Shown here: positions 32,948 through 54,410 of the stretch, piece by piece | Position numbering within the stretch: the first letter of the stretch is position 1 | Layout: every line of letters starts with the position of its first letter | Origin: an uncultured Thermoplasmata archaeon | GTDB lineage: Archaea; Thermoplasmatota; Thermoplasmata; UBA10834 | Assembly: GCA_963787465.1 (NCBI GenBank) | Contig: CAWBDD010000021.1 | Span: forward strand, 80,598 to 144,597 | Reading direction: 5' to 3' | DNA length: 64,000 nt | Translations under genes and position numbers: made by a program | The notes under the pieces: model-generated | What the model saw: only the letters and a program-made list of their open reading frames with translations | Database searches by the model: none | What the model was told of the DNA's origin: nothing

Positions 32948-33118
32948 GGGGACCCCGCCTCCCTCCAGGGAGCGGGATGGGGATTGCCCTTCATGAACGT
33001 ATCTGGGGGATTCCGGGCAGGCGAGGAGACATGGTCCATCATCGTGCGCTGTCCGCCCCACCAGCCATAGCAGGGCTTGGGCGAAAAGGTTATTCAGGAA
33101 CGCGGTTTACCTGCACCC

Positions 33119-33769: not shown

Positions 33770-33778
33770 GGGCTGAAG

Positions 33779-35986
33779 ATGAAGGTCACGGTCTACGGCA
33801 TCGTCCAGGGCGTCGGCTTCAGGCCGACGGTCTACCGTGTCGCGAAGGCCATGGGGCTGAAGGGGTTCGTGCTGAACAACGGTTCGAACGTCGAGATACA
33901 CGTCGACCGCGACGTGGAGGAGTTCCTCAGACGGCTCAAAGCGGCCCTCCCCGCGCTGGCGAGGATAGACAGGGCCGACATCGAGGAGATGCGGGAGGAG
34001 CTGCAGGACTTCACGATCCACCACAGCGAGCAGGGCGCGAGGGTCTCGCTGATCCCCACGGACACCGCGATTTGCGACAGGTGCGCCTCCGACTTCCAGA
34101 GCTCGGGGGGAAAGAGGCATCTCTTCCCATTCACGAACTGCACCGAATGCGGGGCCAGGTTCACAGTGATAGCCGACCTGCCCTTCGACAGGGCCCGGAC
34201 GAGCATGACCGACTTCCCGATGTGCCCTTCGTGCACGGAGGAGTACGCCTCGCCGGAGGACAGGAGGTTCCACGCGCAGACCATCTCGTGCCCCGAGTGC
34301 GGCCCAACGTACACACTATACGATAGTGGACGTAGGGAGGTCGCCGGTGACCCGTTCAAGATCTTCGCGGACAAGATCGACGGAGGAGCCGTCGGCCTTC
34401 TGAAGGGCTGGGGGGGCATGCACATCGTCTGCGGCTTCGCCGGCGCGCCGAGGCTGAGGAAGGTCTACCGGAGGGGGGACAAGCCCTATGCCGTCATGAT
34501 GCGGGACCTCGCGACCGCCAAGAGGTATGCCCGCGTCACGTCCGAGGAGGAGAGGCTCCTGACTTCGCCTCAGAGGCCAATCGTCCTCCTCCACAAGGAG
34601 GAGACGGCGGCGAGGACCCTCGAGGAGGTCTCGCCGGGCCTCGGGAACATCGGGGTCATGCTCCCGTACTCCGGGGCGCATCTGCTACTGTTCGAGCACC
34701 TGAGGGCGGACGGGATCGTCATGACGTCCGCGAACCCTCCAGGCGAGCCCATGGTCACCGTGAACGACCACGCCTTCGATCTCGGCCTCGACTTCTACCT
34801 CATGCACGACAGGAGGATCATCCACCGCTGCGACGACAGTGTGGTCAAGGTCAACTCGGGGATGACCAACTTCACCAGGAAGTCCAGGGGGTTCGTGCCC
34901 ATGCCGGTCGAGGCGAACCACGGACACACGGTCATCGGCGTCGGGGCCCAGTGGGACGTCACGGGGTCCGTCTCGAGGACCGGCGAGATATTCCTGACGC
35001 AGTACGTGGGGGACAGCCAGCAGTACCCGACGCTCCAGTACCTCGACGACGCGATACACCACCTCGGAGGCCTGTTGGGGACGAAGAAGGTCGACGCCAT
35101 AGGCCTCGACAAGCACCCGAGGTACTCGACCAGGATAGTAGCGAAGAGGCTTGCGAAGGAGCACGGGTGCGAGCTGATCGAGACACAGCACTATCATGCG
35201 CACGCGGCGGCGCTCAAGATCGACAGGAAGGTCGACGGGCCGCTCGTCACACTCGCGTGGGACGGGACCGGGTACGGCGACGACGGGACCTCGTGGGGCG
35301 GCGAGACGCTCCTCGCCGATTTCGACAGCTACAGGAGGCTCGGGACCCTCGAGGGGATCCCGCTCCTGGGTGGGGACCGTGCGATCATCGACCCCGGAAG
35401 GGTCGTCACCGCGATCCAACTGCAGCTCGGACTCGAGCCGACGCTCGTCGCGGGGGACCAGGCGGACATCTTCTCCAAGATGATGGGGAAGAGCGTCAAG
35501 GCCTCCAGCATGGGCAGGGTGCTGGACGCCGTCTCATGTATCCTCGGCATCTGCTGCAAGCGGACCTACGAGGGTGAGCCGGCGATCAAGCTCGAGAGAT
35601 GGCTCGAGGTCGGTGAACCCGTTGTCCCGTTCGAGGTCGAGTTCTCCTCTCAAGGAGGTGTCGAAGCCGCCAGGACGCTCCCCATGTTCGAGAGACTGCT
35701 CTCCGCAGACATCTCGACGGACAGGAAGAAGGCCGACGCCGCCGCATCCTTCGTCAAGGCCCTTGTCATGGCGCTCGCGGGCCGCGCCTGCGAGCACGCG
35801 CGCGAGGAAGGGCTGAGGCACGTCGGGCTCACGGGCGGTGTCTCATACAGCGGGCCCGTCGCGGCGTGGACCAATGAGGCCGTCGAGGCGCACGGCCTGG
35901 AGTTCGTCGGGCACGAGAGGATATGCAACGGGGACGGGGGCATCTCCACCGGCCAGAACGCCATAGCTGGCGCGAGGCTCGGGTAA
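33779..35986 (+). CDS. hypF: Carbamoyltransferase HypF
   Basis: 735 aa. N-terminal acylphosphatase domain, two CxxC...CxxC zinc fingers, a YrdC domain and a Kae1-like domain. Confidence 0.9.
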   Translation: MKVTVYGIVQGVGFRPTVYRVAKAMGLKGFVLNNGSNVEIHVDRDVEEFLRRLKAALPALARIDRADIEEMREELQDFTIHHSEQGARVSLIPTDTAICDRCASDFQSSGGKRHLFPFTNCTECGARFTVIADLPFDRARTSMTDFPMCPSCTEEYASPEDRRFHAQTISCPECGPTYTLYDSGRREVAGDPFKIFADKIDGGAVGLLKGWGGMHIVCGFAGAPRLRKVYRRGDKPYAVMMRDLATAKRYARVTSEEERLLTSPQRPIVLLHKEETAARTLEEVSPGLGNIGVMLPYSGAHLLLFEHLRADGIVMTSANPPGEPMVTVNDHAFDLGLDFYLMHDRRIIHRCDDSVVKVNSGMTNFTRKSRGFVPMPVEANHGHTVIGVGAQWDVTGSVSRTGEIFLTQYVGDSQQYPTLQYLDDAIHHLGGLLGTKKVDAIGLDKHPRYSTRIVAKRLAKEHGCELIETQHYHAHAAALKIDRKVDGPLVTLAWDGTGYGDDGTSWGGETLLADFDSYRRLGTLEGIPLLGGDRAIIDPGRVVTAIQLQLGLEPTLVAGDQADIFSKMMGKSVKASSMGRVLDAVSCILGICCKRTYEGEPAIKLERWLEVGEPVVPFEVEFSSQGGVEAARTLPMFERLLSADISTDRKKADAAASFVKALVMALAGRACEHAREEGLRHVGLTGGVSYSGPVAAWTNEAVEAHGLEFVGHERICNGDGGISTGQNAIAGARLG

Positions 35987-36020
35987 ACGTTTATCAACGG
36001 CCCCCGCATTCTCACGCCAG

Positions 36021-36248
36021 ATGTGCCTAGCCGTCCCAGGTGAGGTCAAATCCGTCGATGGCGTGGTCGCCAAGGTCGATTTCGGCGGCGTCACGCGCAC
36101 TGCGAACCTGTCGCTCGTGGACGCGAAGATCGGTGACTACGTCATAGTCCACGCCGGCTACGCGATACAGGTGCTCGACAGGGAGGAAGCGGAGAAGACC
36201 CTCGAGGTCTTCAGGGAGCTCCTGGGCCAGGAGGACGCAGGGACGTAG
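36021..36248 (+). CDS. hypC: Hydrogenase maturation factor HypC
   Basis: 75 aa, beginning MCLAVP (the conserved N-terminal Cys2 motif). Confidence 0.85.
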   Translation: MCLAVPGEVKSVDGVVAKVDFGGVTRTANLSLVDAKIGDYVIVHAGYAIQVLDREEAEKTLEVFRELLGQEDAGT

Positions 36249-36254
36249 GTACCG

Positions 36255-36629
36255 ATGCACGAGTTCTCGGTCATGAGCCAGTTGGTGCAGGGCGTCCTCG
36301 AGGAGGCTAAGGGGCACAGCGCGTCCAGGGTCGAGGAGGTCGTCCTGGACCTCGGCGACTTCACGATGCTGGGCGTCGAGCAGCTCACTTTCGCGTTCGA
36401 CGTCCTCACGAAGGGGACCATCATGGAGGGCGCCGTCCTCACAGTCCACCGCATACCGGGAAGGGTGAGATGCGGCTGCGGGGTCGACAGGGAGATGGCG
36501 CCCGATGCGGATTCCCCTCACAGGGTCGTGCCCGTCCTCGAATGCCCCGGCTGCGGAAAGCTGGCCGAGTTGGTAGAGGGCAGGGAGTGCGTGGTCAGGA
36601 ACATCAGGATGGTGGTCCCTGATGCTTAG
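36255..36629 (+). CDS. hypA: Hydrogenase nickel insertion protein HypA
   Basis: Starts MHEFSV, with CGCG...CPGCG zinc-ribbon motifs. Confidence 0.85.
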   Translation: MHEFSVMSQLVQGVLEEAKGHSASRVEEVVLDLGDFTMLGVEQLTFAFDVLTKGTIMEGAVLTVHRIPGRVRCGCGVDREMAPDADSPHRVVPVLECPGCGKLAELVEGRECVVRNIRMVVPDA

Positions 36630-37707
36630 GCTAAGGGACAGGGAGATGTCGAGGAAGGTCCTCGACAGGCTGGAGGCGATGAGGCTCGACCTCACCCTCA
36701 TGCACGTCTGCGGCACGCACCAGGACACCCTCATCAGGTTCGGCCTCGACGGCGAGTTCGCGAGAGTCGGGGTCGACATCCGTCAGGGGCCAGGATGCCC
36801 CGTCTGCGTCACGACGCCCAGGGAGATCGAGGAGGTGCTCGCGCTCGCAAGGAGCGGGCTCACCGTCGCCGTCTTCGGGGACGTGATGAAGGTCCCCGGT
36901 GAGACCGGGTCTCTGCACGATGCGAAGGCCGAGGGGGCCGACGTCAGGGTCGTGTTCGGGGTCGACGACGCCGTGGCTCTGGCCAAGAGCACGCAGAAGG
37001 AGACGGTCTTCATGGGCATAGGGTTCGAGACCACCGCCCCGACGACCGCCTCCGCGCTCGTAGCCGGCATGCCGCCCAACCTCTCCGTGCTGAGCTGTCA
37101 CAGGACCGTTCCGCCCGCGCTCAAGGCGATCGCGGGGATGGGCGACATCCGGTTGCACGGGCTGATCCAGCCAGGCCATGTGAGCACGATCATCGGGACG
37201 CGGCCGTACGAGTTCCTGTCGAAGGAACATCACATACCACAGGTGGTTGCCGGCTTCGAGCCGCTGGACCTGCTGATGGGCGTGTACATGATAGCGAGGC
37301 AGGTCAAGGAGGGGAGGGCGGAGGTGGAGAACGAGTACTCGCGCATCGTCCACCCCGAGGGGAACCCTGCGGCGCTGAGGGCGATGGATGAGGCTTTCGA
37401 AGTCACCGACGTCGTCTGGAGGGGTTTCCCGGTGATCGCCGGGAGCGGGCTGGAGGTCGGGCGACGGTTCGAGGACCACGATGCCAGGAAGCGGCACGAG
37501 GCCCTCCTGAGGGACGTCCATTCACGCGAGTTCCACGAGGCCAAGGGATGCAGGTGCGGGGAGATGCTCCGCGGGATCGCGAAGAGCGAGGAGTGCACCC
37601 TCTTCGGGAAGAAGTGCACGCCGTCGACGCCGATCGGTCCGTGCATGGTCTCCCGCGAGGGGAACTGCTACATCTCGTACAGGTATCAGAGCAGGGCCAA
37701 GCGGTGA
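36622..37707 (+). CDS. hypD: Hydrogenase maturation factor HypD
   Basis: CGTHQ, GPGCPVC and C-terminal CxxC motifs are present. Its start overlaps the hypA stop. Confidence 0.85.
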   Translation: MLRLRDREMSRKVLDRLEAMRLDLTLMHVCGTHQDTLIRFGLDGEFARVGVDIRQGPGCPVCVTTPREIEEVLALARSGLTVAVFGDVMKVPGETGSLHDAKAEGADVRVVFGVDDAVALAKSTQKETVFMGIGFETTAPTTASALVAGMPPNLSVLSCHRTVPPALKAIAGMGDIRLHGLIQPGHVSTIIGTRPYEFLSKEHHIPQVVAGFEPLDLLMGVYMIARQVKEGRAEVENEYSRIVHPEGNPAALRAMDEAFEVTDVVWRGFPVIAGSGLEVGRRFEDHDARKRHEALLRDVHSREFHEAKGCRCGEMLRGIAKSEECTLFGKKCTPSTPIGPCMVSREGNCYISYRYQSRAKR

Positions 37708-37927
37708 ACGGTCAGAACGCGGGGTCCATATACCCGGGCGCTTACGTTCGGCATACGGGCCAGGCTGCGGGAACGACGGTGCCGGGCCGACCTTGCCCCG
37801 TCGAGGGAGACGCTGCGGTGCTCGTTTCCGCCCGTCGATTTATCGACGGTTTCGAGAAACGGCGATTATACGAATTTCGATTTTCGAGGACATTATCTGC
37901 AAGATAAACTAAGGTTTCATAAGGAGT

Positions 37928-37940
37928 TGCTTAACGAATG
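37928..37940 (+). promoter_or_regulatory. Conserved motif TGCTTAACGAATG (within GGAGTtGCTTAACGAATG), ~183 nt upstream of the hdrA start. An identical copy lies upstream of the second hdrA operon.
   Basis: Exact 13-mer repeat (16/17 including flanks), at 37928-37940 and 47207-47219. The two copies are nearly the same distance (183 and 181 nt) from the respective start codons. Confidence 0.4.
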
Positions 37941-38122
37941 TCGTTCGCACGGCTGCGCTTTTCGAAATCCTCGCGGCGAAACCTATATTAACGGCGTCTC
38001 AATTATCGGTCAACCGTCGGAATTGATGGACCGAGTGGACGCGCCAGACCAACCACTGGCGACGCCCGGTGGGCACTCGGACCGACGCATCTACGACTTG
38101 CACGAGTACGAGGAGGGGGAAA

Positions 38123-40204
38123 GTGACCTCGTCCGATTCGCAACACGAGAACAAGAGCAAGGATGGTCCCGCGAAGCCGAGGGTCGGGGTGTTCGTCTGC
38201 CATTGCGGCAGCAATATTGCTGGCGTCGTGGACTGCGGCAAGGTCAGGGAGGCCGCGGAGAAGATACCCGGCGTCGTCGTCGCCAAGGAGAACAAGTACA
38301 CCTGCTCCGACCTCGGCCAGGAGGAGATCGTCAAGGCGATCAAGGAGAACGGCGTCGAGCGCGTCGTCGTCGCATCCTGTTCACCGAGGCTCCACGAACC
38401 CACCTTCAGGGCATGCATCCAGAGGGCGGGCCTGAACCCATACCTCCTGCAGATGGTCAACATACGCGAGCAGTGCTCGTGGGTGCACGCGCACGAGAAG
38501 GAGAAGGCCACCGAGAAGGCGAGCGCCCTCGTGCGCATGGGCGCCTCGAAGGCGGCCATACTGGAGCCACTCGAGGCGCGCGAGGTCCCGGTCGAGCCGT
38601 CGACGCTCGTGATCGGCGGAGGGGTCTCTGGCATACAGGCCGCGCTGGACCTCGCGAACATGGGGTTCAAGGTCCATCTCGTCGAGTCGAAGCCGAGCAT
38701 AGGCGGCGTCATGGCCCAGCTCGACAAGACCTTCCCGACGGGCGACTGCGCCATCTGCATACTCGCACCGAAGATGGTGGAGCTGTCGCGTCATCCGAAC
38801 GTCACGCTCCTCTCCTACTCCGAGGTCGAGGAGGTCAAGGGCTACATCGGCAACTTCGATGTGAAGATCAGACGCAAGGCCAGATACGTGGACGAGGCGA
38901 AATGCGTCGGCTGCGGCGTATGCGCCGAGGCCTGCCCCGTCAAGGTCGAGAACGAGTTCGACGAGGGGTTCGGCCAGAGGAGAGCGATATACGTCCCGTT
39001 CCCGCAGGCCGTGCCGCTGAAGTACACCATCGACAAGGTCCACTGCCTACACTTCAAGACCGGCAAGTGCCAGCTCTGCGTGAAGGCGTGCATGAACAAC
39101 GCCATAGACCACAAGATGACCGACGAGGTGATTACCCTGAAGGTGGGGACGATCATCGTCGCGACCGGGTTCGAGACCTACGTCCCGAAGAAGAACGGGG
39201 TCTACAAGTACTGGGAGTACGAGAACGTCATAACCGCTCTCGAGCTCGAGAGGCTCCTCAACGCGTCCGGACCGACCGGAGGCCATCTCACCAGACCATC
39301 CGACGGGCTCGTCCCGAAGCGCGTGGCGTTCATCCAGTGCGTCGGATCCAGGAACAAGAAGATAGGGAACAACTACTGCTCGCGCGTCTGCTGCATGTAC
39401 GCGATGAAGAACGCGCAGATCATCAAGGAGCACTATCCAGATACCGACATCGCCGTCTATTACAACGACATCCGCGCCTTCGGGAAGGGCTTCGAGGAGC
39501 TCTACCACAGGGTCAGGGAGGACTACGGCGTCGAGTTCATCCGCGGGAGGCCGGCCAAGCTGACCCGGAACAAGGACACTAAGGGGGTCATGATCAGGGC
39601 CGAGGAGACCCTGCTCAACAAGATCACTGAGAGGGAGTTCGACCTCGTGGTCCTCTCGACCGGGCTGGTCCCATCCGAGGGGACGAAGAGGATCGCCAAG
39701 ACTCTCAGCCTCACCGTGAGCCCGGACGGCTTCCTCGCCGAAGCGCATCCGAAGCTGAGGCCCGTGGACACGGCCATGGACGGCATCTACCTCGCGGGTT
39801 GCTGCCAGTCGCCCAAGGACATACCCGACTCCGTAGCGCAGGCGAAGGCCGCCGCGTCGTCGGCCGCCCAGCCCATGGCGACCAAGAAGGTCCGCATCGA
39901 GCCGCTCACGGTCACGATAGACGAGGAGGTCTGCGTCGGCTGCGGGCTGTGCGTCGAGCTCTGCCCGTACGGCGCGCCCGAGCTCGCCCAGGGGGAGAAG
40001 GGCGGCATGAAGGCACATATCATAGAGGCGCTCTGCCACGGCTGCGGCACTTGTGCCGCATCGTGCCCGCAGAAGGCCATCACCGCGAAACAGTTCACAG
40101 ATGAGCAGATCTCGGCCGAGATAGCCTCCGCGCTGGCCTCCGATGACGAGGGGCACGCGCCCAAGGGGCATCACGGGAAGAGGGACGCCGAGGCGGGGGT
40201 GTGA
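38123..40204 (+). CDS. hdrA: Heterodisulfide reductase subunit A (canonical ~690-aa form)
   Basis: N-terminal VGVFVCHCGSNIAG Cys-cluster domain. FAD GG motif VIGGGVSGIQAALDLA. Inserted and C-terminal 4Fe-4S ferredoxin CxxCxxCxxxCP motifs. GTG start at 38123 preceded by the RBS GAGGAGGGGG. Confidence 0.9.
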   Translation: MTSSDSQHENKSKDGPAKPRVGVFVCHCGSNIAGVVDCGKVREAAEKIPGVVVAKENKYTCSDLGQEEIVKAIKENGVERVVVASCSPRLHEPTFRACIQRAGLNPYLLQMVNIREQCSWVHAHEKEKATEKASALVRMGASKAAILEPLEAREVPVEPSTLVIGGGVSGIQAALDLANMGFKVHLVESKPSIGGVMAQLDKTFPTGDCAICILAPKMVELSRHPNVTLLSYSEVEEVKGYIGNFDVKIRRKARYVDEAKCVGCGVCAEACPVKVENEFDEGFGQRRAIYVPFPQAVPLKYTIDKVHCLHFKTGKCQLCVKACMNNAIDHKMTDEVITLKVGTIIVATGFETYVPKKNGVYKYWEYENVITALELERLLNASGPTGGHLTRPSDGLVPKRVAFIQCVGSRNKKIGNNYCSRVCCMYAMKNAQIIKEHYPDTDIAVYYNDIRAFGKGFEELYHRVREDYGVEFIRGRPAKLTRNKDTKGVMIRAEETLLNKITEREFDLVVLSTGLVPSEGTKRIAKTLSLTVSPDGFLAEAHPKLRPVDTAMDGIYLAGCCQSPKDIPDSVAQAKAAASSAAQPMATKKVRIEPLTVTIDEEVCVGCGLCVELCPYGAPELAQGEKGGMKAHIIEALCHGCGTCAASCPQKAITAKQFTDEQISAEIASALASDDEGHAPKGHHGKRDAEAGV

Positions 40205-40785
40205 GCATGGGCGAGGCGGAGAAGACCTTCATAGGCGGGCTCCACGAGAAGCTCACGGAGGACAAGGTCATAGACGAGTCGCAGCTCGACCGAGACTTCG
40301 CGAAGGAGATCACGAAGTACGGCGGGAAGGACGTCATGACATGCCTCCAGTGCGGCAACTGCACCGGTGTGTGTCCCATCTCGCTCAAGATCGATTACAA
40401 GACCAGGATCATAATGAAGTACTGCCAGTTCGGGCTCAAGAAGTACACCCTGGGGACGCAATGGGTCTGCGCCACCTGCTACAGATGCTACGAGCACTGC
40501 CCCGCTGACATCAACCCCGCAGAGGTCATGATCGCCCTGAGGCACATCGCGGTCCGCGAGGGGGCCATCCCGCCGTTCGTCAAGGTCGCGGCGACCAACC
40601 TCGTCATGTACGGCCAGAGCGTCAAGCCCGACGCCGAGATCGAGAAGATACGCAAGGAGCTGGGCCTTGAGGACGTCCACTCCAAGGACCAGGAGTACAG
40701 GGTCGTCCTGAGGGAGATCAGGACGATCGTGCAGGCGACCAAGTACGACAAGCTCATAGGGATCGACGCGGAGGTGAAGCAGTGA
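40201..40785 (+). CDS. hdrC: Heterodisulfide reductase subunit C
   Basis: Two 4Fe-4S motifs: CLQCGNCTGVCP and CATCYRCYEHCP. Its start overlaps the hdrA stop. Confidence 0.85.
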   Translation: MSMGEAEKTFIGGLHEKLTEDKVIDESQLDRDFAKEITKYGGKDVMTCLQCGNCTGVCPISLKIDYKTRIIMKYCQFGLKKYTLGTQWVCATCYRCYEHCPADINPAEVMIALRHIAVREGAIPPFVKVAATNLVMYGQSVKPDAEIEKIRKELGLEDVHSKDQEYRVVLREIRTIVQATKYDKLIGIDAEVKQ

Positions 40786-41699
40786 GCGCATACGCCTACT
40801 TCTTCGGATGCGTCATCCCCAACAGATATCCAGGCATCGAGTTCGCCGTCAGATGGGTCTGCGGCAAGAACGGGTTCGACCTCGACGTCAAGGACATCAA
40901 GGAGTTCTCCTGCTGCCCCGTCCCTGGCATATTCTACTCCACCGACAAGGACACGTGGCTCGCGCTGGCGACGCGCAACCTCACCCTGGCGCAGGACGAG
41001 AGGAGGGAGATCATGACGGTCTGCAACGGCTGCCTGACCTCGCTCCTCAAGGCCACCGAGTACCTCCAGGACCCGAAGACCATGGGCAAGGTCAACAGGA
41101 CCCTGTCCCAGGTGGGGAGGAAGTACACGGGGATACCGAGGAAGGGCGAGGGGACCCGGCGGGTCTTCGAGCCGGTCAAGGTGCGCCACTACGTCGATGT
41201 CATGAGCAAGGACGTCGGGATGGACGCGGTTGCGGCCAAGGTCACCCATCCCCTGAAGAACATCAGGGTCGCGGTGCACTACGGCTGCCACTACCTGAGG
41301 CCGACCGAGCACCAGACCTTCGACGACCCTAACGACCCGAAGCTGATCGACAGGATGGTCGAGGCATGCGGGGCCACGAGCGTCGAATACGAGGACAGGC
41401 TCGACTGCTGCGGCGCGGGCGGCGGCGTCAGGTCGCACGTGGTCGAGCTGGCCAACTCGCTCACGCAGGACAAGTGCGCGAACATCAGCGCGGCCGGCGC
41501 GGACTGCATAGTCACCGGTTGCCCGTTCTGCCTCCTGCAGTTCGACAACGCGCAGAAGGCGTTCTCGAAGGACGGCATACCCGTCATGCACATCTCGCAG
41601 TTCCAGGCGCTCGCGATGGGGATAGACACCATCTCGCTGGGCTTCGACACGCACCATGTCTCCGTACACTCGTTCCTCAGGAAGCTCAGGGGGGCATAG
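40782..41699 (+). CDS. hdrB: Heterodisulfide reductase subunit B
   Basis: Two CCG domains (..SCCPVPG.., ..CCGAGGG..). Overlaps the hdrC stop. Confidence 0.9.
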   Translation: MSAYAYFFGCVIPNRYPGIEFAVRWVCGKNGFDLDVKDIKEFSCCPVPGIFYSTDKDTWLALATRNLTLAQDERREIMTVCNGCLTSLLKATEYLQDPKTMGKVNRTLSQVGRKYTGIPRKGEGTRRVFEPVKVRHYVDVMSKDVGMDAVAAKVTHPLKNIRVAVHYGCHYLRPTEHQTFDDPNDPKLIDRMVEACGATSVEYEDRLDCCGAGGGVRSHVVELANSLTQDKCANISAAGADCIVTGCPFCLLQFDNAQKAFSKDGIPVMHISQFQALAMGIDTISLGFDTHHVSVHSFLRKLRGA

Positions 41700-42159
41700 T
41701 CTGACCGAGGGGACGAAGGGCATCGACCAGGGGGAGGAGCAGGCTCCTTCCTACGAGCCGAGGATAGTGGCCTTCTGCTGCAACTGGTGCTCCTACGCGG
41801 GGGCGGACCTAGCGGGGACGACGAGGCTGCAGTACCCCACCAACGTCAAGATCATCAGGGTCATGTGCTCGGGCAGGGTCGACCCGGCGTTCGTGCTGAA
41901 GGCGTTCGCCCTCGGGGCCGACGGCGTGATAGTCGCTGGCTGCCACCCGGCGGACTGCCACTACATCAACGGGAACGAGAAGGCCGCCCTTAGGGGCGAC
42001 TTCCTCCAGCAGTTCCTCGAGGACACGGGCATCGAACCCCAGAGGTTCCGGGTCGAGTGGATCGCCGGGTCCGAGGGCTCCAAGTTCGCGTCGGTCATCA
42101 GGCAGATGGTCGCCGACCTCGAGAGGCTCGGCCCCATGGCGCAGGAGGGAGGGCAGTGA
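41656..42159 (+). CDS. mvhD: Methyl-viologen-reducing hydrogenase delta subunit MvhD. The start is ambiguous: ATG 41656 overlaps hdrB by 44 nt; the alternative is GTG 41767.
   Basis: [15 protein letters not shown]...IRVMCSGRVDP...[15 protein letters not shown] is diagnostic of MvhD. Confidence 0.75.
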   Translation: MSPYTRSSGSSGGHSLTEGTKGIDQGEEQAPSYEPRIVAFCCNWCSYAGADLAGTTRLQYPTNVKIIRVMCSGRVDPAFVLKAFALGADGVIVAGCHPADCHYINGNEKAALRGDFLQQFLEDTGIEPQRFRVEWIAGSEGSKFASVIRQMVADLERLGPMAQEGGQ

Positions 42160-45100
42160 CTGGGAGGACCGTCGGCGCGGTGCTCGTGGTCGGGGGCGGC
42201 CCGGCGGGCATGCAGGCAGCGCTGGACCTCGCCGACTCCGGGTTCAAGGTCTACCTGCTCGAATCGGGGGCCAGCATAGGCGGCACCATGGCCCAGCTCG
42301 ACAAGACATTCCCGACCAACGACTGCTCCATGTGCATCATATCCCCGAAGCTCGTCGCCACCGGGAAGCACGAGAACATCACCATGATCACCCACGGCGA
42401 GATCAAGAAGGTCGACGGGAAGGCCGGGGACTTCAAGGTCAAGATCACGAGGCACTCGAGGTACATCGAGGAGGCGAAGTGCACTGGATGCGGCGTGTGC
42501 GCCGAGCACTGCCCGGTCGAGGGGACCAACGCCTTCGACAGGGACATGGCGCCGAACAGGGCGATCTACGTGCCGTTCCCGCAGGCCATGCCACTCGTGT
42601 ACACCATAGACAGGGGACTCTGCATCGGCTGCGGTGTCTGCGAGAAGTTCTGCGAGGCGAAGGCCATCAAGTACGACGAGGCCCCTGACAAGGAGGAGAC
42701 CATCGAGGTCGGGGCCATCATCCTGGCGCCTGGCTACGAAATCTTCGAGGCGAAGAAGAAGGTCCAGTACGGCCACGGGACCTTCCCGAACGTCCTGACG
42801 AACATCGAGTTCGAGAGGATGCTCAGCGCCTCGGGGCCCACCGAGGGGCACATCATCAGGCCCTCCGACGGCGACGTGCCGAGGAGGATCGCGTTCGTAC
42901 AGTGCGTCGGCTCGAGGGATGCGCAGACCCCGAACACCTACTGCTCATCGTACTGCTGCATGGCGGCTCTCAAGCAGGCCGTGATAGGGCAGGAGCACGT
43001 GCCCGGGCTCAAGACCACGATATTCTTCATGGACACCAGGGCGTTCGGCAAGGAGTTCGAGGAGTACCTCTCGCGCGCGGAGAACGAGTACGGCGTGCGC
43101 GTGTGCAGGAACAACAGGATACCCAAGGTCGAGGAGGACGCGGAGACCAAGGAGCTCATCCTCAGCTACATCGGCGGCGCCGACATATCCGAGGAGAGGT
43201 TCGACATGGTCATCCTGTCGTGCGGCGCACGGCCGCCGGACAGCGCCGGGCACCTCGCCAAGACCCTGGGCATAAAGCTCAACAAGTTCGGGTTCGCGGA
43301 GACGGACGACCTCACACCGGTCGAGACATCGGTGCCGGGCATCTTCGTCTGCGGCGCCTTCGCCGGTCCCAAGGACATCCCCGACTCGGTCGCACAGGCG
43401 AGCGGGGCGGCGGGGAAGGCCGACGCCCTCCTGGCGGACGAGCGCGGGAAGCTCGTCTCGAAGAAGGAGTACCCCAAGGAGAAGGACGTCGCAGGGAAGG
43501 AGCCCAGGATCGGGGTCTTCGTCTGCCACTGCGGCATCAACATAGGCTCCGTCGTCGACGTGCCCGCTGTCGTGGAGTACGCGAAGACGCTCCCGGGGGT
43601 CGTGTTCGCCGACAGGAACCTGTACACGTGCTCGGGCGACACGCAGACGCGGATCAGGGAGATCATCCAGAAGCACGACCTCAACAGGGTCGTGGTCGCG
43701 AGCTGCACGCCCAGGACACACGAGCCGCTCTTCCAGAACACGGTCAAGGAGGCGGGGCTGAACAAGTACCTCTTCGAGATGGCGAACATCAGGGACCAGT
43801 GCTCATGGGTCCACAGGCTGGAACCGGGGCGCGCCACCGACAAGGCGAAGGACCTCGTGCGGATGGCGGTCGCGAAGGCCTCGACGCTCGAGCCGCTCCC
43901 GCAACCCAAGATACCCGTCACCCCCTCCGCGATGGTCATCGGTGGAGGGCTGGCAGGGATGACCGCGGCGCTGACGATCGCGAACGCTGGCTACGAGGTC
44001 CACCTCGTCGAGAGGGAGAAGGAGCTCGGGGGCCACCTGAGACGGATACACCGCACCCTGGCGGGCGTGGACCCCCAGGACACCTTCAAGGACCTGAAGA
44101 GGCAGATCTCCGAGAACAAGAACATCAAGCTGCACCTCGGGGAGACACCGAAGGAGGTCAAGGGCTACATCGGCAACTTCGAGACCACCCTGAGCGGAGG
44201 GGAGAAGTTCAAGCACGGCGCGGTCGTCGTGGCGACCGGCGCGTCGGAGTACGAGCCCAAGGAGTACCTCTTCGGGAAGAACCCCAAGGTGATGAGGCAG
44301 ACCGACCTCCAGGAGCTCCTGGCCAGCAAGCAGTTCAAGGCCAAGACAGTCGTCATGATCCAATGCGTCGGCTCGAGGAACGAGGAGCACCCCAACTGCT
44401 CCCGCATCTGCTGCTCGACGTCCATGGCCAACGCGCTCTGGATAAAGAGGGAACACCCGGACACCAGCGTGTACGTGCTGTACAGGGACATCAGGACCTT
44501 CGGGTTCGCCGAGGAGAACTACAACGAGGCGGCCAGGCTCGGTGTCATCTTCCTGAGGTACGACCCCGAGGACCCGCCCAGGGTCACCGAGGAGGGCGGG
44601 CAGCTCGTCGTCGAGATCGACGAGACTTTCATCGAGCAGGGGGTCCGCATCAGGCCCGACTACCTCGTCCTCAACGCGGCTGTGCACCCGAACCCCGACA
44701 ACAAGGAACTCGCCCAGCTGCTCAAGGTCCCTCTGAACAAGGAGGGCTTCTTCCTAGAGGCGCACATGAAGCTGCGCCCGGTGGATTTCGCCACCGACGG
44801 GATATTCCTGTGCGGCCTGGCCCACTCGCCCAGGCTCATAGACGAGAGCGTCTCGCAGGCGCTCGCCGCGGCAGCCAGGGTGAACACGGTTCTCTCCAAG
44901 GAGTTCATAGAGGCGGATGGCATGGTCAGCGTCGTCGACCAGGAGAAGTGCGTGGCTTGCGGCAGGTGCGAGGAGGTCTGCCAGTACGGCGCACCCAGGC
45001 TCGAGGAGGTCTCGCCTGGTGTCGTCAAGTCGCGCATAAACGAGGCGCTGTGCAAGGGCTGTGGCTCCTGCGCGGTCACGTGCTGCACACGCGCCATCAG

Positions 45101-45194
45101 CCCGAAGCACTTCAAGAGCGAGCAGATACTCACCATGATCGAGGCGTGCCTGCGCAAGGACCTCGATAAGGTGGACGGGGAGGTCAAGGCATGA
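42156..45194 (+). CDS. hdrA: Tandem HdrA-like protein (1,012 aa): an N-terminal HdrA-like FAD/ferredoxin module fused in front of a complete HdrA
   Basis: Two FAD GG motifs: VVGGGPAGMQAALDLA at the N-terminus and VIGGGLAGMTAALTIA at ~aa 600. An internal RIGVFVCHCGINIG Cys-cluster domain. Ferredoxin motifs in both halves. A GTGA start/stop overlap with mvhD. Confidence 0.8.
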   Translation: MTGRTVGAVLVVGGGPAGMQAALDLADSGFKVYLLESGASIGGTMAQLDKTFPTNDCSMCIISPKLVATGKHENITMITHGEIKKVDGKAGDFKVKITRHSRYIEEAKCTGCGVCAEHCPVEGTNAFDRDMAPNRAIYVPFPQAMPLVYTIDRGLCIGCGVCEKFCEAKAIKYDEAPDKEETIEVGAIILAPGYEIFEAKKKVQYGHGTFPNVLTNIEFERMLSASGPTEGHIIRPSDGDVPRRIAFVQCVGSRDAQTPNTYCSSYCCMAALKQAVIGQEHVPGLKTTIFFMDTRAFGKEFEEYLSRAENEYGVRVCRNNRIPKVEEDAETKELILSYIGGADISEERFDMVILSCGARPPDSAGHLAKTLGIKLNKFGFAETDDLTPVETSVPGIFVCGAFAGPKDIPDSVAQASGAAGKADALLADERGKLVSKKEYPKEKDVAGKEPRIGVFVCHCGINIGSVVDVPAVVEYAKTLPGVVFADRNLYTCSGDTQTRIREIIQKHDLNRVVVASCTPRTHEPLFQNTVKEAGLNKYLFEMANIRDQCSWVHRLEPGRATDKAKDLVRMAVAKASTLEPLPQPKIPVTPSAMVIGGGLAGMTAALTIANAGYEVHLVEREKELGGHLRRIHRTLAGVDPQDTFKDLKRQISENKNIKLHLGETPKEVKGYIGNFETTLSGGEKFKHGAVVVATGASEYEPKEYLFGKNPKVMRQTDLQELLASKQFKAKTVVMIQCVGSRNEEHPNCSRICCSTSMANALWIKREHPDTSVYVLYRDIRTFGFAEENYNEAARLGVIFLRYDPEDPPRVTEEGGQLVVEIDETFIEQGVRIRPDYLVLNAAVHPNPDNKELAQLLKVPLNKEGFFLEAHMKLRPVDFATDGIFLCGLAHSPRLIDESVSQALAAAARVNTVLSKEFIEADGMVSVVDQEKCVACGRCEEVCQYGAPRLEEVSPGVVKSRINEALCKGCGSCAVTCCTRAISPKHFKSEQILTMIEACLRKDLDKVDGEVKA

Positions 45195-46786
45195 CCGAGG
45201 AGAGGTTCGAGCCGAGCATAGTGGCCTTCTGCTGCAACTGGTGCTCCTACGCCGGGGCCGACCTGGCGGGCGTGAGCAGGATGCAGTACCCACCGAACGC
45301 GAGGGTCATCAGGGTCATGTGCTCCGGCAGGGTCGAGCCGTACTTCATACTCAGGGCGCTGGAGCTCGGGGCCGACGGTGTCCTGATCGCAGGGTGCCAC
45401 ATAGGCGACTGCCACTACATCTCCGGGAACGTCGAGGCCGAGAAGCGCATGGCCGCGACCAAGGAGGTCCTCGACAGGCTCGGCATAGGCAAGGACCGGA
45501 TGCGCCTGGAGTGGATCTCCGCGTCCGAGGGCCAGAAGTTCGCCCAGACGATGAAGGAGTTCACGGAGCAGATCAGGAAGCTCGGGCCCAACCCGCTGGC
45601 GGGGAAGCTCCCGGAGAAGAAGCCGTCCGCTGACCTCAAGAAGAAGGTCGACCAGCTCATAGAGGACACCGGGGCGTTCGACTGCGTGGAGTGCGGGAAG
45701 TGCACCACGGTCTGCCCTGTGGCCAAGTACGACCCCGACTTCGCCCCCAGGACCATCGTCCTGAAGTCCATGGAGGGGCAGGTGAGCGAACTGTCCAAGG
45801 GCAAGGACATCTGGACGTGCGTCACCTGCGAGCAGTGCAACTCGATGTGCCCGTACAAGGTGGACTACTCGGGCTTCATACGCGGGCTCAGGACCGAGGC
45901 GGCCGCCTGCGACAACGTGCCCGTGTGCTCCCAGGGCGGGCTCATGCAGGGGGTCATGAGGGTCCAGGCGAACGGGTCCTTCAAGCAGGACAGGCTCACG
46001 TGGCTGACCCCTGACCTGAAAGTGGCGGACAAGGGGGACTACTTCCTGTTCACGGGTTGCGCGACATACTTCGACGCCATATTCAGGGACCGCCAGGAGC
46101 TCAAGCTCGCCGACATACCCCGCGCGGCGGTCAAGATCATGAACAGGGCGGGCATCGTCCCGGTCGTCAGCAACGACGAGGTCTGCTGCGGGCACGACCT
46201 CAACTGGACCGGGGACGAGGACGGCATGATGAAGCTCATGAAGAAGAACGTGGACCTGATCAAGGCGTCGGGGGCGAAGAAGGTGGTCTTCCCGTGCCCG
46301 GAGTGCCTCAGGACCTTCAACATGGACTACCAGGACTTCCTGGGCGACTTCGACTTCGAGCTGGTGCACATATCCCAGCTCGTGGACGACCTCCTGAAGG
46401 AGGGGAAGATCAAGCTCAAGAAGGGCGTCTCCAAGGTCACGTTCCAGGACTCCTGCAGGCTCGGGAGGCACATGGGCATCTACGACGAGCCCAGGGCTGC
46501 CATCAGGGGGACCCAGGCCGAGGTGGTCGAGATGGACAACACCAGGGACAAGGCCCTGTGCTGCGGCGTCAGCGCGTGGGCGACCTGCGACGAGGTCTCG
46601 AAGAAGATGCAGGTCGACAGGCTCAAGGAGGCGAAGCGGACCGGCGCCGAGTGCCTGGTGACCGGGTGCTACAAATGCCTGATACACCTTAACTGTGCGC
46701 AGGTCAACAAGACCCAGGTTCCCAAGGAACAGATAGACATACCGATCAAGGATCTGAGCGTGTTCATCGCGGACGCGCTGGAATGA
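45191..46786 (+). CDS. MvhD-HdrC-HdrB triple-domain fusion protein
   Basis: N-terminal MvhD domain ([15 protein letters not shown]...CHIGDCHY). Two ferredoxin motifs (CVECGKCTTVCP, CVTCEQCNSMCP). C-terminal CCG domains (CCGHDL, LCCGVSAW). ATGA overlap with the upstream gene. Confidence 0.8.
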   Translation: MTEERFEPSIVAFCCNWCSYAGADLAGVSRMQYPPNARVIRVMCSGRVEPYFILRALELGADGVLIAGCHIGDCHYISGNVEAEKRMAATKEVLDRLGIGKDRMRLEWISASEGQKFAQTMKEFTEQIRKLGPNPLAGKLPEKKPSADLKKKVDQLIEDTGAFDCVECGKCTTVCPVAKYDPDFAPRTIVLKSMEGQVSELSKGKDIWTCVTCEQCNSMCPYKVDYSGFIRGLRTEAAACDNVPVCSQGGLMQGVMRVQANGSFKQDRLTWLTPDLKVADKGDYFLFTGCATYFDAIFRDRQELKLADIPRAAVKIMNRAGIVPVVSNDEVCCGHDLNWTGDEDGMMKLMKKNVDLIKASGAKKVVFPCPECLRTFNMDYQDFLGDFDFELVHISQLVDDLLKEGKIKLKKGVSKVTFQDSCRLGRHMGIYDEPRAAIRGTQAEVVEMDNTRDKALCCGVSAWATCDEVSKKMQVDRLKEAKRTGAECLVTGCYKCLIHLNCAQVNKTQVPKEQIDIPIKDLSVFIADALE

Positions 46787-47196
46787 CAACTCGAGAAAGT
46801 GATAGGATGACACCGAACAAGGCCCAACAGCAGCCGCCGAAGGCTGACGAGAGGTTCGTGCTGATAGAGCTGTCCTGCAAGGACAAGAAGTGCTCGCCTT
46901 GCACGTACCCGAACTGCCAGAGGTTCGCGACCGAGCAACCCAAGAAGAAGCCGTACGAGACGCGCTTCTCGAGGATGTTCGAGGTCAAGAAGCCCATGAC
47001 CACGCCCGAGGCACCCAGGGAACGCCTGGTGCTCGTGGAGCTGTCCTGCAAGGACAAGAAGTGCTCGCCTTGCACATACCCGAACTGCCAGAGGTTCGCC
47101 AAGGCGACCACCCAGGAGAGGAAGAAGGCGCCTTTCAAGGTGAAGATCACGGAGATCGAGAAGGGCACGGACGTCTCGAAGCTCCTCGGCAAGTAG
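46783..47196 (+). CDS. Small tandem-repeat Cys-cluster protein (2 x C-x4-C-x2-C-x4-C), last gene of the hdr module
   Basis: 137 aa. The 27-aa block ER(F/L)VL(I/V)ELSCKDKKCSPCTYPNCQRFA occurs twice. The underlying 66-nt DNA repeat (46870-46935 versus 47040-47105) differs by one base. The start overlaps the upstream stop (ATGA). Confidence 0.55.
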   Translation: MTTRESDRMTPNKAQQQPPKADERFVLIELSCKDKKCSPCTYPNCQRFATEQPKKKPYETRFSRMFEVKKPMTTPEAPRERLVLVELSCKDKKCSPCTYPNCQRFAKATTQERKKAPFKVKITEIEKGTDVSKLLGK

Positions 47197-47206
47197 CAGG
47201 CTGGAG

Positions 47207-47219
47207 TGCTTAACGAATG
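47207..47219 (+). promoter_or_regulatory. Second copy of the TGCTTAACGAATG motif, 181 nt upstream of the start of the second hdrA-like operon
   Basis: See the entry at 37928-37940. A CATATG-ACGCA-CATATG inverted repeat also lies at 47346-47362. Confidence 0.4.
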
Positions 47220-47399
47220 AGAGCATGGGCGGCAGGGGAGAGCGACCGGAATCGTCGCGTGACCAACGAAACAGATAAAGCGATGAATTGGTTACCGAAG
47301 GGCGCGCCTAGGCCACCGGGCCGGGCCTGCTTGACATCTGCCGGTCATATGACGCACATATGTGAACAGGGAGTATCTAGTAATCGTGGAGGTCTTTGA

Positions 47400-48702: not shown

Positions 48703-50572
48703 ATGACCACCCATGACAAGGCGGAGAAGCCAAGGATCGGAGTGTTCGTCTGCCACTGCGGCTCGAACATCGGCGGGTTCGTCGATGTGCCGTCCGTCGC
48801 GGAGTATGCCAAGACCCTCCCCGACGTCGCGTTCGCGACCGACAACCTGTACACCTGTGCCGAGGACGGCCTCAGCAGCATCAGGGAGGCCATAAGGAAG
48901 CACAACCTCAACAGGGTCATAGTCGCCAGCTGCACGCCCAGGACCCACGCGCCCCTGTTCCAGGCCACCTGCGAGGGGGCCGGGCTGAACAAGTACCTGT
49001 TCACATTCGTGAACATCAGGGAGCACTGCTCCTGGGTCCACATGAAGGAGAAGGACCTGGCCACGAAGAAGGCCAAGGACCTCATCAGGATGGGGGTCGC
49101 GCGGGCGCGCCTGCTCATCCCCCAGGAGGAGGTCAAGGTCGACGTGGAGCCAGTCGCGCTCGTCATCGGCGGAGGAATAAGCGGCATGACCGCGGCGCTG
49201 TCGATGGCGGAGATGGGCTTCCCGGTGCACCTCGTCGAGAAGGAAGGCGAGCTCGGTGGCTTCGTCAAGATACTCAACAACCTGTACGTGACGGACAAGA
49301 CCGCCGCGGACACGATCAAGCCGCTGGTCGACAAGGTGATGAGCGCACAAGAAGATCAAGGTCTACACCGGCTCGACCGTCAAGAGCGTCGAGGGCTTCA
49401 TCGGCAACTACGAGATAGTCATAGGCAAGAAGGGAGCCGACGACGTCAAGGCCAAGGTCGGCACGATCGTCGTGGCCACCGGGGCGCTCGAGTTCATCCC
49501 CGAGGGGCTGTACGGGTACAACCAGTACCCCAACGTCGTGACGCTGACGGAGTTCGAGATGCTCTGCAGGAAGAAGACCCTGCCGAAGCTGAAGAACGTG
49601 GCGTTCATCCAGTGCGTCGGGTCCAGGGGACAGGTCAAGTCGTACTGCTCCAGGATCTGCTGCAATGTCTCGATCAAGAACGCGGTCAACATCGTCGACA
49701 ACTACGACAACATGCTCGGGGCGGCCGAGAAGCTCGGCACGGTGATCGAGAAGGTCCCGGTCGAGAAGAAGGCCACAGACGAGATACTGGAGCGCAGGCG
49801 CAGGAGGCGCGGGCGCGACGCTGGGACCGACGAGGGCGGGGCCGAGGAGGTCAAGCTCGGACCGTCGGAGAAGATCGAGGTCACCGTCTTCAACAGGGAC
49901 GTGATGGCGTACGGCGTCGAGCACGAGCTGCAGTTCAACAAGGCGAGGGAGAAGCGCGTCAAGTTCGTGAGATACACGACAGACCACCTCCCGAAGGTCT
50001 TCATGGAGGGCAACCAGCTGATGCTGACCTACTTCCACGAGACCCTGAAGCTCGAGAGGACGATGCCGGTCGACATGGTCATACTGGCGACGCCGCTAGT
50101 GGCGCAGCCGGACGCGGACCAGCTGTCGAAGCTGCTCAAGGTGCCGCTCGGCCAGGAGGGGTTCTTCCTCGAGGCGCACGTCAAGCTCAGGCCAGTGGAC
50201 TTCGCGACGGACGGCATATACTGCGCCGGCACCTGCCGCGGACCCGCGGACATAACCGAGTGCGCGTACCAGGGGAGCGCGGCGGCCTCGAGGGCCGCCA
50301 TCCCGATGGCGAAGGGGTACGTGCAGGCCGAGGCGATCACCAGCGTGGTCGACGAGACCAAGTGCACCGGGTGCGGGACCTGCATGCAGGTCTGTCCGTA
50401 CGGCGCGCTCAGGAAGAACGACAAGGGCTACGCCGAGGTCATAGTGGCCGCGTGCAAGGGATGCGGCTGCTGCGGGGCGACCTGCCCCGAGGGCGCGATA
50501 ACGATGACGAACTACACCGATGCACAGCTCCTGGCTGAGGCCAGGGCGGCCCTCGAGGAGGGATTGCAGTGA
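48703..50572 (+). CDS. hdrA: HdrA paralog with an apparent +1 frameshift near 49343-49349. As read, it is in two frames: 48703-~49347 and ~49349-50572.
   Basis: N-terminal RIGVFVCHCGSNIGG and VIGGGISGMTAAL. After ...DKVMSA the frame turns to junk, and the authentic HdrA continuation (KKIKVYTGSTVKSVEGFIGNYEIVIGKKG...) is in the +1 frame. The C-terminal ferredoxin motifs are intact. Confidence 0.6.
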
Positions 50573-51372
50573 GTGACCAGGTCAAGAAGGAGCAGAGCGG
50601 GGAGTTCGAGCCCAAGGTCATCGGGTTCCTCTGCAACTGGTGCTCCTACGCAGGGGCGGACCTCTGCGGGGTCAGCAGGTACCAGTACCCGACCAACATC
50701 CGCGCGGTGAGGGTCATGTGCTCGACCAGGATCAGCCCGCACCTCGTCCTCGACCTTTTCAGGGCTGGGGCGGACGGCATCCTGCTCGGTGGCTGCCACA
50801 TAGGCGACTGCCACTACATATCCGGGAACTACTACACCGAGAAGCGCGTCAGGCTCATGAAGAAGCTGCTCGAGGAGAGCGGCCTGGAGCCGGAGCGCCT
50901 CAGGCTGGAGTGGGTCTCGGCCTCCGAGGGCGAGAAGTTCTCGAAGGTCGTGAGCGAGTTCACGGAGCACGTGAGGAAGCTCGGCCCCAGCAAGGTCAAG
51001 AGCGACCCGGTCCAGAGGGACAAGGTCGCGGCCGCGGACGCCGCAGGCGAGACCTTCAGGCTGAGGGCGCTGGTCGGCAAGGAGCTCAACCTTGTCCAGA
51101 AGGGGAACGTGTACGACAACAAGCTGGACCCGGTCGAGCTGCAGAAGATCATCGACCACGCGACCGAGGAGGAGTTCGAGCGCGCGCTCATACTGGAGCT
51201 GAGCCGCTCGAAGCCCAGGTCGGTCAAGGAGCTCGGACAGATCATGGACGTGCCGACGGACAAGGTCCTGAGGCACATAGTGGCGCTCCGTCAGAAGAAC
51301 ATGATAACGATGGAGCACCCGGACGGGTTCACACCCACATACAAGACCATAGAGATCGGAGGTGAGCACTGA
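50569..51372 (+). CDS. MvhD domain protein fused to a C-terminal winged-helix-like domain
   Basis: N-terminal [14 protein letters not shown]...CHIGDCHY (MvhD). The C-terminal ~90 aa (ALILELSRSKPRSVKELGQIMDVPTDKVLRHIVALRQKNMI) is homologous to the free-standing protein at 54867-55257. GTGA overlap with the upstream stop. Confidence 0.75.
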   Translation: MSDQVKKEQSGEFEPKVIGFLCNWCSYAGADLCGVSRYQYPTNIRAVRVMCSTRISPHLVLDLFRAGADGILLGGCHIGDCHYISGNYYTEKRVRLMKKLLEESGLEPERLRLEWVSASEGEKFSKVVSEFTEHVRKLGPSKVKSDPVQRDKVAAADAAGETFRLRALVGKELNLVQKGNVYDNKLDPVELQKIIDHATEEEFERALILELSRSKPRSVKELGQIMDVPTDKVLRHIVALRQKNMITMEHPDGFTPTYKTIEIGGEH

Positions 51373-54300: not shown

Positions 54301-54410
54301 GCCTGCCCGTCCGGCGCCCTGGACACAGAAGGGCTTCAAGGACGAGCAGATCTACGCGATGATCGATGCCGCGCTCGAGGACGACGCGCAAGAGACAGGA
54401 GGTGAAGTAA
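51372..54410 (+). CDS. hdrA: HdrA paralog (third module). It is complete in its first ~860 aa, but the C-terminal part requires at least two +1 corrections (~53958 and ~54328). It is possibly continuous with the downstream MvhD.
   Basis: VVGGGISGMQSALDLA, RIGVFVCHCGINIGG and a second GG motif MVIGGGLSGMTAAL (a tandem-type HdrA). After ...MLKVPVTQ the track frame becomes P/R/G junk, while EGFFLEAHMKLRPV... continues in +1. After ...ACPSGALDT it shifts again, to KGFKDEQIYAMIDAALEDD.... Confidence 0.6.

Follow-up and report, generated by a model that had tools for sequence, protein, structure and literature searches.

A 64,000-nucleotide (nt) stretch of DNA from an uncultured Thermoplasmata archaeon (GenBank assembly GCA_963787465.1, contig CAWBDD010000021.1, positions 80,598 to 144,597; hereafter "the window") carries the same 13-mer, TGCTTAACGAATG, upstream of two genes designated hdrA1 and hdrA2, which lead two duplicated heterodisulfide-reductase (Hdr) operons. 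The question raised by this locus is whether the repeated sequence is a control element common to both genes and, if so, of what kind. An initial annotation had proposed a shared cis-regulatory element, pointing to the nearly equal distances from the two copies to the start codons and to intergenic regions that otherwise appeared dissimilar. On comparison with related loci, the 13-mer is probably one box of a conserved, multi-box, helically phased region that would serve a putative regulator upstream of two paralogous hdrA promoters. The near-equal distances proved to be coincidental. All positions are given in window coordinates unless a related locus is named, and all features lie on the plus strand unless otherwise stated.

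Copies of the 13-mer in the window

Exact copies of TGCTTAACGAATG are located at 37928-37940, in the intergenic region upstream of hdrA1 (IGR1), and at 47207-47219, in that upstream of hdrA2 (IGR2). The initial annotation was correct in counting these as the only exact copies in 64 kb, in placing them 183 nt (GTG at 38123 minus 37940) and 181 nt (ATG at 47400 minus 47219) from the start codons, and in describing the downstream operons as hdrA-led, as both genes encode HdrA-type proteins. A minus-strand copy with one mismatch at 58648-58660 lies within a coding gene and was set aside. Allowing one indel extends the identity to GGAGTTGCTTAACGAATG (37923-37940) versus GGAG-TGCTTAACGAATG (47203-47219), which can be written GGAG(T)TGCTTAACGAATG, and the extended intergenic match comprises 17 of 18 positions.

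Note that the window contains 852 direct pairs of 13-mers, mostly in paralogous genes, so an identical 13-mer is unremarkable by itself. For IGR1 and IGR2 in particular, the probability of an exact match of at least 13 nt was 0.00125 (20,000 dinucleotide shuffles), and that of a local alignment score of at least 29 was 0.0018. By our own rough arithmetic, however, ~0.3 such pairs are expected among all ~27 intergenic regions of the window (4.6 kb), and several 12-mers are common to other, unrelated pairs of these regions. Evidence from the window alone should for these reasons be considered moderate, and the case is made by conservation in relatives. Pairwise alignment of IGR1 and IGR2 using MAFFT left the motif itself unaligned, and similarity between the two regions is therefore local only. 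A dispersed repeat or miniature mobile element was also considered, and was rejected because there are only two copies of 17-18 nt without extended similarity.

Related loci and core promoters

Orthologous loci were collected by exact-protein look-ups (L001, L002, L003 and L118), by an HdrA1 scan of species-representative genomes (L004-L037) and by an HdrA2 scan of metagenomes (L038-L117). The closest named relatives of the window are metagenome-assembled genomes designated "Thermoplasmata archaeon". The comparison set comprised ~30 non-redundant IGR1 and 27-47 non-redundant IGR2 sequences, and the HdrA proteins of these relatives are 66-98% identical to those of the window. Conservation counts and correlations are raw values, not corrected for phylogeny. 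For positional histograms, sequences were anchored on the transcription factor B recognition element (BRE) of the core promoter, and forward CGAWW sites were counted.

Both operons have a core promoter of the archaeal type, in which a purine-rich BRE (cRnAAa) is followed by an 8-bp A/T-rich TATA box and the whole is conserved. The hdrA1 promoter (37976-37991) consists of the BRE GCGAAAC and the TATA box CTATATTAA, and is invariant in ~30 relatives. The hdrA2 promoter (47264-47280) consists of the BRE CAACGAAAC and the TATA box AGATAAAG, and does not vary among the relatives in which it could serve as an anchor. The same GCGAAA plus TATA type is found at other promoters of the window, there with short leaders. 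Transcription in archaea typically starts ~25 nt downstream of the TATA box. Using this spacing, the hdrA1 transcript is predicted to start at ~38013-38019, with a leader of ~105-110 nt, and the hdrA2 transcript at ~47303, with a leader of ~95 nt. A conserved CGTC(A/G)GA at ~38015-38021 would fit an initiator region. Both predicted hdrA leaders are unusually long (~100 nt) and conserved.

The hdrA1 leader also contains a nested hairpin (38031-38080), CCGAGTG...GCGCC...GGCG...CACTCGG, which is located downstream of the motif and is no part of it. The hairpin is conserved in 30 of 30 relatives, and RNAalifold on 30 sequences returned 12 pairs, only two of which show compensatory changes. The hairpin may have a regulatory role in the leader.

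Boxes upstream of hdrA1

When IGR1 sequences are anchored on the BRE, CGAWW sites cluster at only three places: 14 nt before it (Box D), 41-42 nt before it (Box C), and 98/99 plus 105/106 nt before it (Box A). The first copy of the 13-mer falls within Box C. Its CGAAT core starts 42 nt before the BRE (37935 to 37977), and a forward CGAWW site is found at 41-42 nt in 20 of 30 relatives. The copy forms the left arm of a palindrome (consensus TTAACGATTATCGCC). In its extended form, delimited by alignments of relatives, Box C reads GGAGTTGCTTAACGAATGTCGTTCG (37923-37947) and holds the 5+3+5 palindrome AACGA-ATG-TCGTT (37933-37945). Relatives share the consensus TTAACGAT(T/A)(A/G)TCGCC, with the palindrome CGAT-N-ATCG, and an exact CGAWNWTCG is present at Box C in 16 of the 30. 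Within the close clade (the window, L001 and L002), four of 25 positions of Box C are variable, versus seven of 12 in the spacer just upstream, and the 11-mer GCTTAACGAAT is invariant.

Boxes A, C and D are all palindromes built on CGA/TCG. Box A (GATTATACGAATTTCGATTTTCG, 37864-37886) contains CGAA-T-TTCG; only one of its 23 positions is variable in the close clade, and its ATTAWW part varies only between A and T. Box D (GCGCTTTTCGAAAT, 37955-37968) contains the palindrome TTTCGAAA 14 nt upstream of the BRE, which is invariant in 30 relatives and occurs nowhere else in the window. An additional conserved segment, Box B (ATCTGCAAGATAAACT, consensus CTGnAAGnnAAnCT, 37895-37910), was delimited using alignments and the close-clade comparison.

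Boxes upstream of hdrA2

The CGAAT core of the second copy is located 53 nt before the hdrA2 BRE (47214 to 47267) and 18 nt after the preceding stop codon. The extended box, GGAGTGCTTAACGAATGAGAG (47203-47223), is a half-site without dyad symmetry. Relative to the BRE, forward CGAWW sites in IGR2 cluster at two distances only, 42 and 53 nt upstream, the latter being occupied in 13 of 47 sequences. Among 27 sequences, upstream conservation is highest in the ACG(A) columns 54-51 nt before the BRE. Many relatives have two direct repeats 11 nt apart, such as GACGAAAAAGG-GACGAATGCAAG. The positions of the two window copies relative to their promoters (42 versus 53 nt) also differ by 11 nt, or one helical turn. 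Among the window, L038 and L118, one of 21 positions is variable in GGAG[T/A]GCTTAACGAATGAGAG, versus 13 of 30 in flanking sequence (Fisher P = 0.003). Fixed register to the core promoter and diverging flanks, the pattern used here to recognize an operator, are thus seen in the CGAWW peaks, in the profile of information content and in the contrast within close clades. A positional counterpart of Box D, designated Box D' (GGAATCGTCGCG, 47248-47259), places a reverse WWTCG ~12 nt before the BRE. The prefix TGCTTA is found in IGR2 only in the window, L038 and L118, and the IGR2 of the window is 8-15 nt shorter than in most relatives, which together suggest a local rearrangement.

These anchored positions change two points of the initial annotation. 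Spacing to the start codons, which had been taken as conserved, is not: the distance from box to BRE is 42 nt at hdrA1 and 53 nt at hdrA2, and the distance from BRE to start codon is 146 versus 134 nt. Because the first differs by 11 nt and the second by 12 nt in the opposite direction, they offset each other, and the equality of 183 and 181 nt is accidental. In relatives, the distance from BRE to start codon ranges from 146 to 193 nt for hdrA1 and from 102 to 143 nt for hdrA2. Nor are the intergenic regions otherwise dissimilar, as had been supposed. They have a common architecture consisting of a CAACGAAAC-type BRE with a TATA box, a box ~12-14 nt before the BRE, AACGA(A/T) boxes at -42 or -53, and long leaders.

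Recurrence in related loci

A motif search in related loci, of the kind that the initial annotation had suggested for related genomes, found non-coding GCTTAACGAAT confined to hdrA upstream regions. In 1.59 Mb of related loci there are nine occurrences, of which seven are non-coding and distributed over three positions: Box C, IGR2, and a distal element of L004 and L056. The other two, in L095 and L096, fall at a single orthologous site within the HdrA coding sequence (...KLNEFG...) and were disregarded. Matches to TTAACGAWT in Thermoplasmata loci likewise lie near hdrA, including in L078, and the few remaining matches lie in bacterial loci or at that one coding site. A regular-expression search for promoter-anchored boxes in the related loci was too strict to be informative about a regulon; it returned 34 IGR1, three IGR2 and one other match, essentially hdrA1 promoters only.

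The distal element has the consensus TT(A/G/T)ACGAA(T/C)GGAAGAA, is located ~248 nt upstream of the hdrA1 BRE, and is conserved in ~20 lineages. It lies 12-137 nt after the hypD stop codon, and all strong matches are in sense orientation. Exact GCTTAACGAAT lies within this element in L004 (345-365) and L056 (409-430). The window has a degenerate copy, GCTTACGTTCGGCATAC (37740-37756). Across genomes, a better match at Box C tends to go with a poorer one at the distal element (Spearman -0.51, P = 0.004; uncorrected for phylogeny), which looks like turnover of binding sites.

Genes of the locus and candidate regulators

The genes near the two copies are all on the plus strand. A hypB-like gene, hypF, hypC, hypA and hypD (33077-37707) are followed by IGR1 (37708-38122) and then by module A, which consists of hdrA1 (GTG at 38123), hdrC, hdrB, mvhD, a long HdrA fusion, an MvhD-HdrC-HdrB fusion and a 137-amino acid Cys-repeat protein ending at 47196. 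IGR2 (47197-47399) is followed by hdrA2 (47400), more HdrA-like genes, an MvhD-winged-helix fusion, mvhG, mvhA and hycI. The Hdr modules are old duplicates with 60-80% identity at the DNA level.

The last gene of module A (46783-47196) encodes a lysine-rich protein with an internal tandem duplication (LIELSCKDKKCSPCTYPNCQRF occurs twice). This protein matches no Pfam family above threshold, and its gene keeps the same position in relatives. In one relative (L078, 733-1400), hdrA1, hdrC, hdrB and mvhD have been deleted; the whole IGR1 control region and leader are kept, followed by a short hdrA1 remnant and then by the gene for the long HdrA fusion. A different 13-mer, GAAAGGGTTTGGA (minus strand TCCAAACCCTTTC), occurs at 2181-2193, 10200-10212 and 23543-23555, in each case 12-30 nt 3' of the stop codon of a minus-strand gene. 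There are four matches with at most two mismatches versus 0.7 expected, and this sequence may be a motif associated with 3' ends or terminators.

The initial annotation suggested winged-helix proteins of the locus as regulators. Such genes do exist, but nothing links them to the motif, and their database matches are sub-threshold or generic. One encodes MvhD fused to a C-terminal winged-helix domain (50569-51372) and is a candidate regulator by inference only. The extension of ~125 amino acids contains helical and winged-helix parts, and identity is 73-96% in more than 100 related proteins. As the fusion is as conserved as enzyme subunits, it would fit a structural subunit equally well. Relatives of this MvhD (FlpD) fusion are annotated merely as "hydrogenase iron-sulfur subunit" in the source databases. 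The second candidate is a paralogous gene for a 127-amino acid winged-helix protein before mvhG (~54875-55257), which is frameshifted in the window and intact in L118 (12078-12461). Comparing 54170-55257 of the window with L118 (11617-12075 and 12078-12461) reveals two frameshifts in the module-C mvhD and one in the 127-amino acid gene; these frameshifts are either assembly indel errors or pseudogenes. Among the neighbours upstream of the hyp cluster, no regulator genes were recognised in a scan.

The MvhD domain of the fusion belongs to the kind that binds a [2Fe-2S] cluster in Mvh/Hdr complexes. A more specific proposal, which we regard as a long shot, is that a redox-sensing regulator from the cluster itself, either the fusion or its 127-amino acid paralogue, has the boxes as its operators. 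The electron-bifurcating Hdr/Mvh modules would then report the state of redox balance or electron flow to their own promoters through phased GCTTAACGAAT-type boxes, and turnover of sites (at 42, 53 and ~250 nt) would tune each operon.

Proposed function and alternatives

Both copies lie in hdrA upstream control regions, at positions that are phylogenetically conserved, and a shared cis-regulatory element is therefore the best reading. This part of the initial annotation stands, with the limitation that only ~AACGA(A/T)T is shared across the family. Identity over the full 13-mer is specific to the lineage, and the two copies sit in boxes that are built differently, the hdrA1 box being palindromic and the hdrA2 box a half-site or direct repeat. 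Three kinds of element had been offered. A distal, upstream regulator site fits best because both copies lie upstream of an invariant BRE and TATA box, whereas a leader RNA element or the promoter itself is without support.

The mechanism that we favour assumes a protein-binding control region on double-stranded DNA. Conserved boxes on an AACGA(A/T)T core precede the hdrA1 BRE by ~105 plus 98 nt (Box A), 42 nt (Box C), 14 nt (Box D) and ~248 nt (distal element); at hdrA2, a single direct-repeat box or a pair of them, at 53 and 42 nt, is joined by Box D' at ~12 nt. In the lineage of the window, the preferred sequence GCTTAACGAAT occupies 42 nt at hdrA1 and 53 nt at hdrA2, which places it at approximately -80 and -90 relative to the predicted starts of transcription. 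The protein that may bind these phased boxes would be a regulator with sequence specificity, probably of the winged-helix class and acting as a dimer or oligomer. Once bound, it would either aid recruitment of TATA-binding protein (TBP) and transcription factor B (TFB), leading to activation, or nucleate an oligomer that extends to Box D and the BRE and represses transcription. In either mode the two Hdr/MvhD modules would be co-regulated.

Several observations weigh against this mechanism. With no further copies of the 13-mer in the 64-kb window, no regulon is demonstrable there. The IGR2 copy has no dyad partner in the window. In distant relatives only ~AACGA is common to both promoters, and part of the identity of the 13-mer could be a lineage-specific accident or a short sequence transfer. 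The IGR2 copy begins 10 nt downstream of a stop codon and no obvious terminator or T-tract intervenes, so transcripts of the upstream module probably include it as well. The A/T-only variation in Box A resembles that of a TATA box; if this were a second promoter, Box C could lie inside a long leader. Assignment of the promoters rests on consensus and conservation. As for the regulator, all Pfam and Protein Data Bank sequence matches of the C-terminal domain of the fusion are sub-threshold (HTH_20, ArsR). Its AlphaFold model has a predicted local distance difference test score of 69, and Foldseek returned only generic winged-helix matches, including PCI-type protein-interaction domains, with E > 0.2.

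If the element acted at the RNA level, it would belong to the 3' untranslated or intercistronic RNA of the upstream operon, or to a long leader begun at Box A, and might be a site for processing or stability or for binding of a protein or small RNA. We consider this fairly unlikely. It is consistent with the IGR2 copy lying so close behind the last module-A stop codon without an intervening T-tract, with the sense orientation of the distal element and its position shortly after hypD, and with the likeness of Box A to a BRE plus A/T-only, TATA-like segment from which a transcript spanning Box C could be driven. However, the gap between "BRE" and "TATA" in Box A is 4-5 nt longer than in canonical promoters of the genome. 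RNAalifold on 30 sequences spanning Box A to the TATA box gave -1.06 kcal/mol with zero compensatory pairs, and a search of Rfam with both intergenic regions (E <= 10) gave as its sole match a mammalian long non-coding RNA model at 9 bits. A riboswitch or structured leader RNA containing the motif was rejected for this lack of covariation and of a meaningful Rfam match. The dyads have spacers of 0-1 nt, which are incompatible with a hairpin; since the 1-nt spacer of Box C precludes one, the symmetry points to a dimeric DNA-binding protein. The fixed register of 42 or 53 nt to the BRE makes sense for DNA only, and therefore favours duplex DNA over RNA as the form that is recognized.

A purely historical explanation, in which shared ancestry or copying of an ~18-nt patch between promoters accounts for the identity and there is no common regulator, is improbable. 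The modules are indeed ancient duplicates at 60-80% DNA identity, their promoters share an architecture, and the prefix and shorter length of IGR2 hint at rearrangement. Paralogues of that age, though, would not retain a neutral 17/18 match amid intergenic sequence that is otherwise unalignable. The motif has been constrained after the split of close relatives, other lineages have acquired this 11-mer at a third position, and there is no flanking homology to support gene conversion. Chance sharing of a 13-mer by AT-richer intergenic regions is very unlikely. It draws on the ~0.3 pairs expected by rough arithmetic, on the 12-mers shared by unrelated regions and on the start-codon distances, whose equality is indeed accidental. 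Against it are the pair-specific probabilities of ~0.001-0.002, the coincidence of both copies with positions conserved in relatives, the invariance of the motif in close relatives while its flanks diverge, and the non-coding recurrence of the 11-mer only at hdrA upstream regions in 1.59 Mb. Finally, GGAG precedes an ATG in both copies, and GGAG-N10/11-ATG could be read as the Shine-Dalgarno sequence and start codon of small upstream open reading frames (17 and 60 codons). This is hardly credible, as L001 and L002 have A in place of the last G of the 13-mer (ATG to ATA), and most relatives lack the ATG and read ...CGATTATCG... instead. Furthermore, the two would-be peptides are unrelated by our own reading, the distance from GGAG to ATG is long for a Shine-Dalgarno sequence, and transcription is predicted to start downstream of both sites. 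A small open reading frame or leader peptide was rejected for lack of a conserved start codon.

On the reading that we prefer, a set of phased operator boxes, the hdrA box would be a credible but fairly ordinary kind of gene switch. The multi-box architecture provides concrete DNA probes (GCTTAACGAAT, TTTCGAAA and the Box A dyad) for fishing out the regulator, and, given scans of whole genomes, a handle for predicting operons that respond together. Were the MvhD-winged-helix fusion the binding protein, an iron-sulfur electron-transfer module would be tied directly to transcription, which would be unusual. If it is not, the boxes would be one more archaeal operator, useful for annotation and unsurprising. 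The organisms concerned, non-methanogenic Thermoplasmata with several HdrA/MvhD/Mvh modules, are uncultured and widespread in sediments and wetlands, judging from the mud, wetland and sediment sources of the metagenomes. Literature searches on Ptr2 sites, on MvhD with helix-turn-helix domains and on Hdr regulation in Thermoplasmata yielded no description of the motif or of control of these modules.

Comparison with known archaeal systems

A generic archaeal core promoter (BRE, TATA box and proximal element) is present at both operons and anchors the whole architecture. The BRE, ACGAAAC, resembles the ACGAAT core of the upstream boxes. The 13-mer is distinct from the promoter: it precedes the BRE by 37-48 nt and lacks a TATA-like segment.

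Activators of the Lrp type, such as Ptr2 of Methanocaldococcus jannaschii, use multiple, helically phased dyad sites upstream of the BRE and TATA box, and are expected to act through recruitment of TBP and TFB. The hdrA boxes are similar to such an upstream activating sequence (UAS) in their location, in their dyads and in their helical phasing. They differ in sequence, which is unrelated to that of Ptr2 sites, and in that the copy at hdrA2 is only a half-site. The genes seen in the window include none for an Lrp/AsnC protein.

Operators characteristic of other regulators were also sought. Those of SurR (GTTn3AAC and GTTn3ATC), of NrpR (GGAA-N6-TTCC) and the TGM of TrmBL1 (TATCAC-N5-GTGATA) are absent from IGR1 and IGR2, as is TTCG-N7-9-CGAA of MsvR, for which the single match in the window is inside hypA. 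A C box was also absent. The absence of the MsvR, SurR, NrpR and TGM sequences places the hdrA boxes outside those regulons.

Two of these systems have other features in common with the hdrA boxes. MsvR of methanogens, which is described as unique to methanoarchaea, is redox-sensitive and uses operators of the form TTCG-N7-9-CGAA and TTCGTAN4TACGAA, with several boxes per promoter (PMC3729527). The hdrA promoters likewise have several boxes each, with half-sites on TTCG/CGAA; orientation and spacing of the half-sites are different, namely CGAW-N1-WTCG or CGA-N3-TCG. SurR of Thermococcales is an ArsR-like winged-helix redox switch that regulates hydrogenase and electron-flow operons from operators (GTTn3AAC and GTTn3AACn5GTT) tens of bases upstream (PMC12162507). 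No SurR homologue was identified, and the taxon is a different one; the functional logic is the same as that proposed here for the Hdr/Mvh modules. By analogy with these systems, the hdrA arrangement would work in the manner of archaeal upstream operators or UAS elements.

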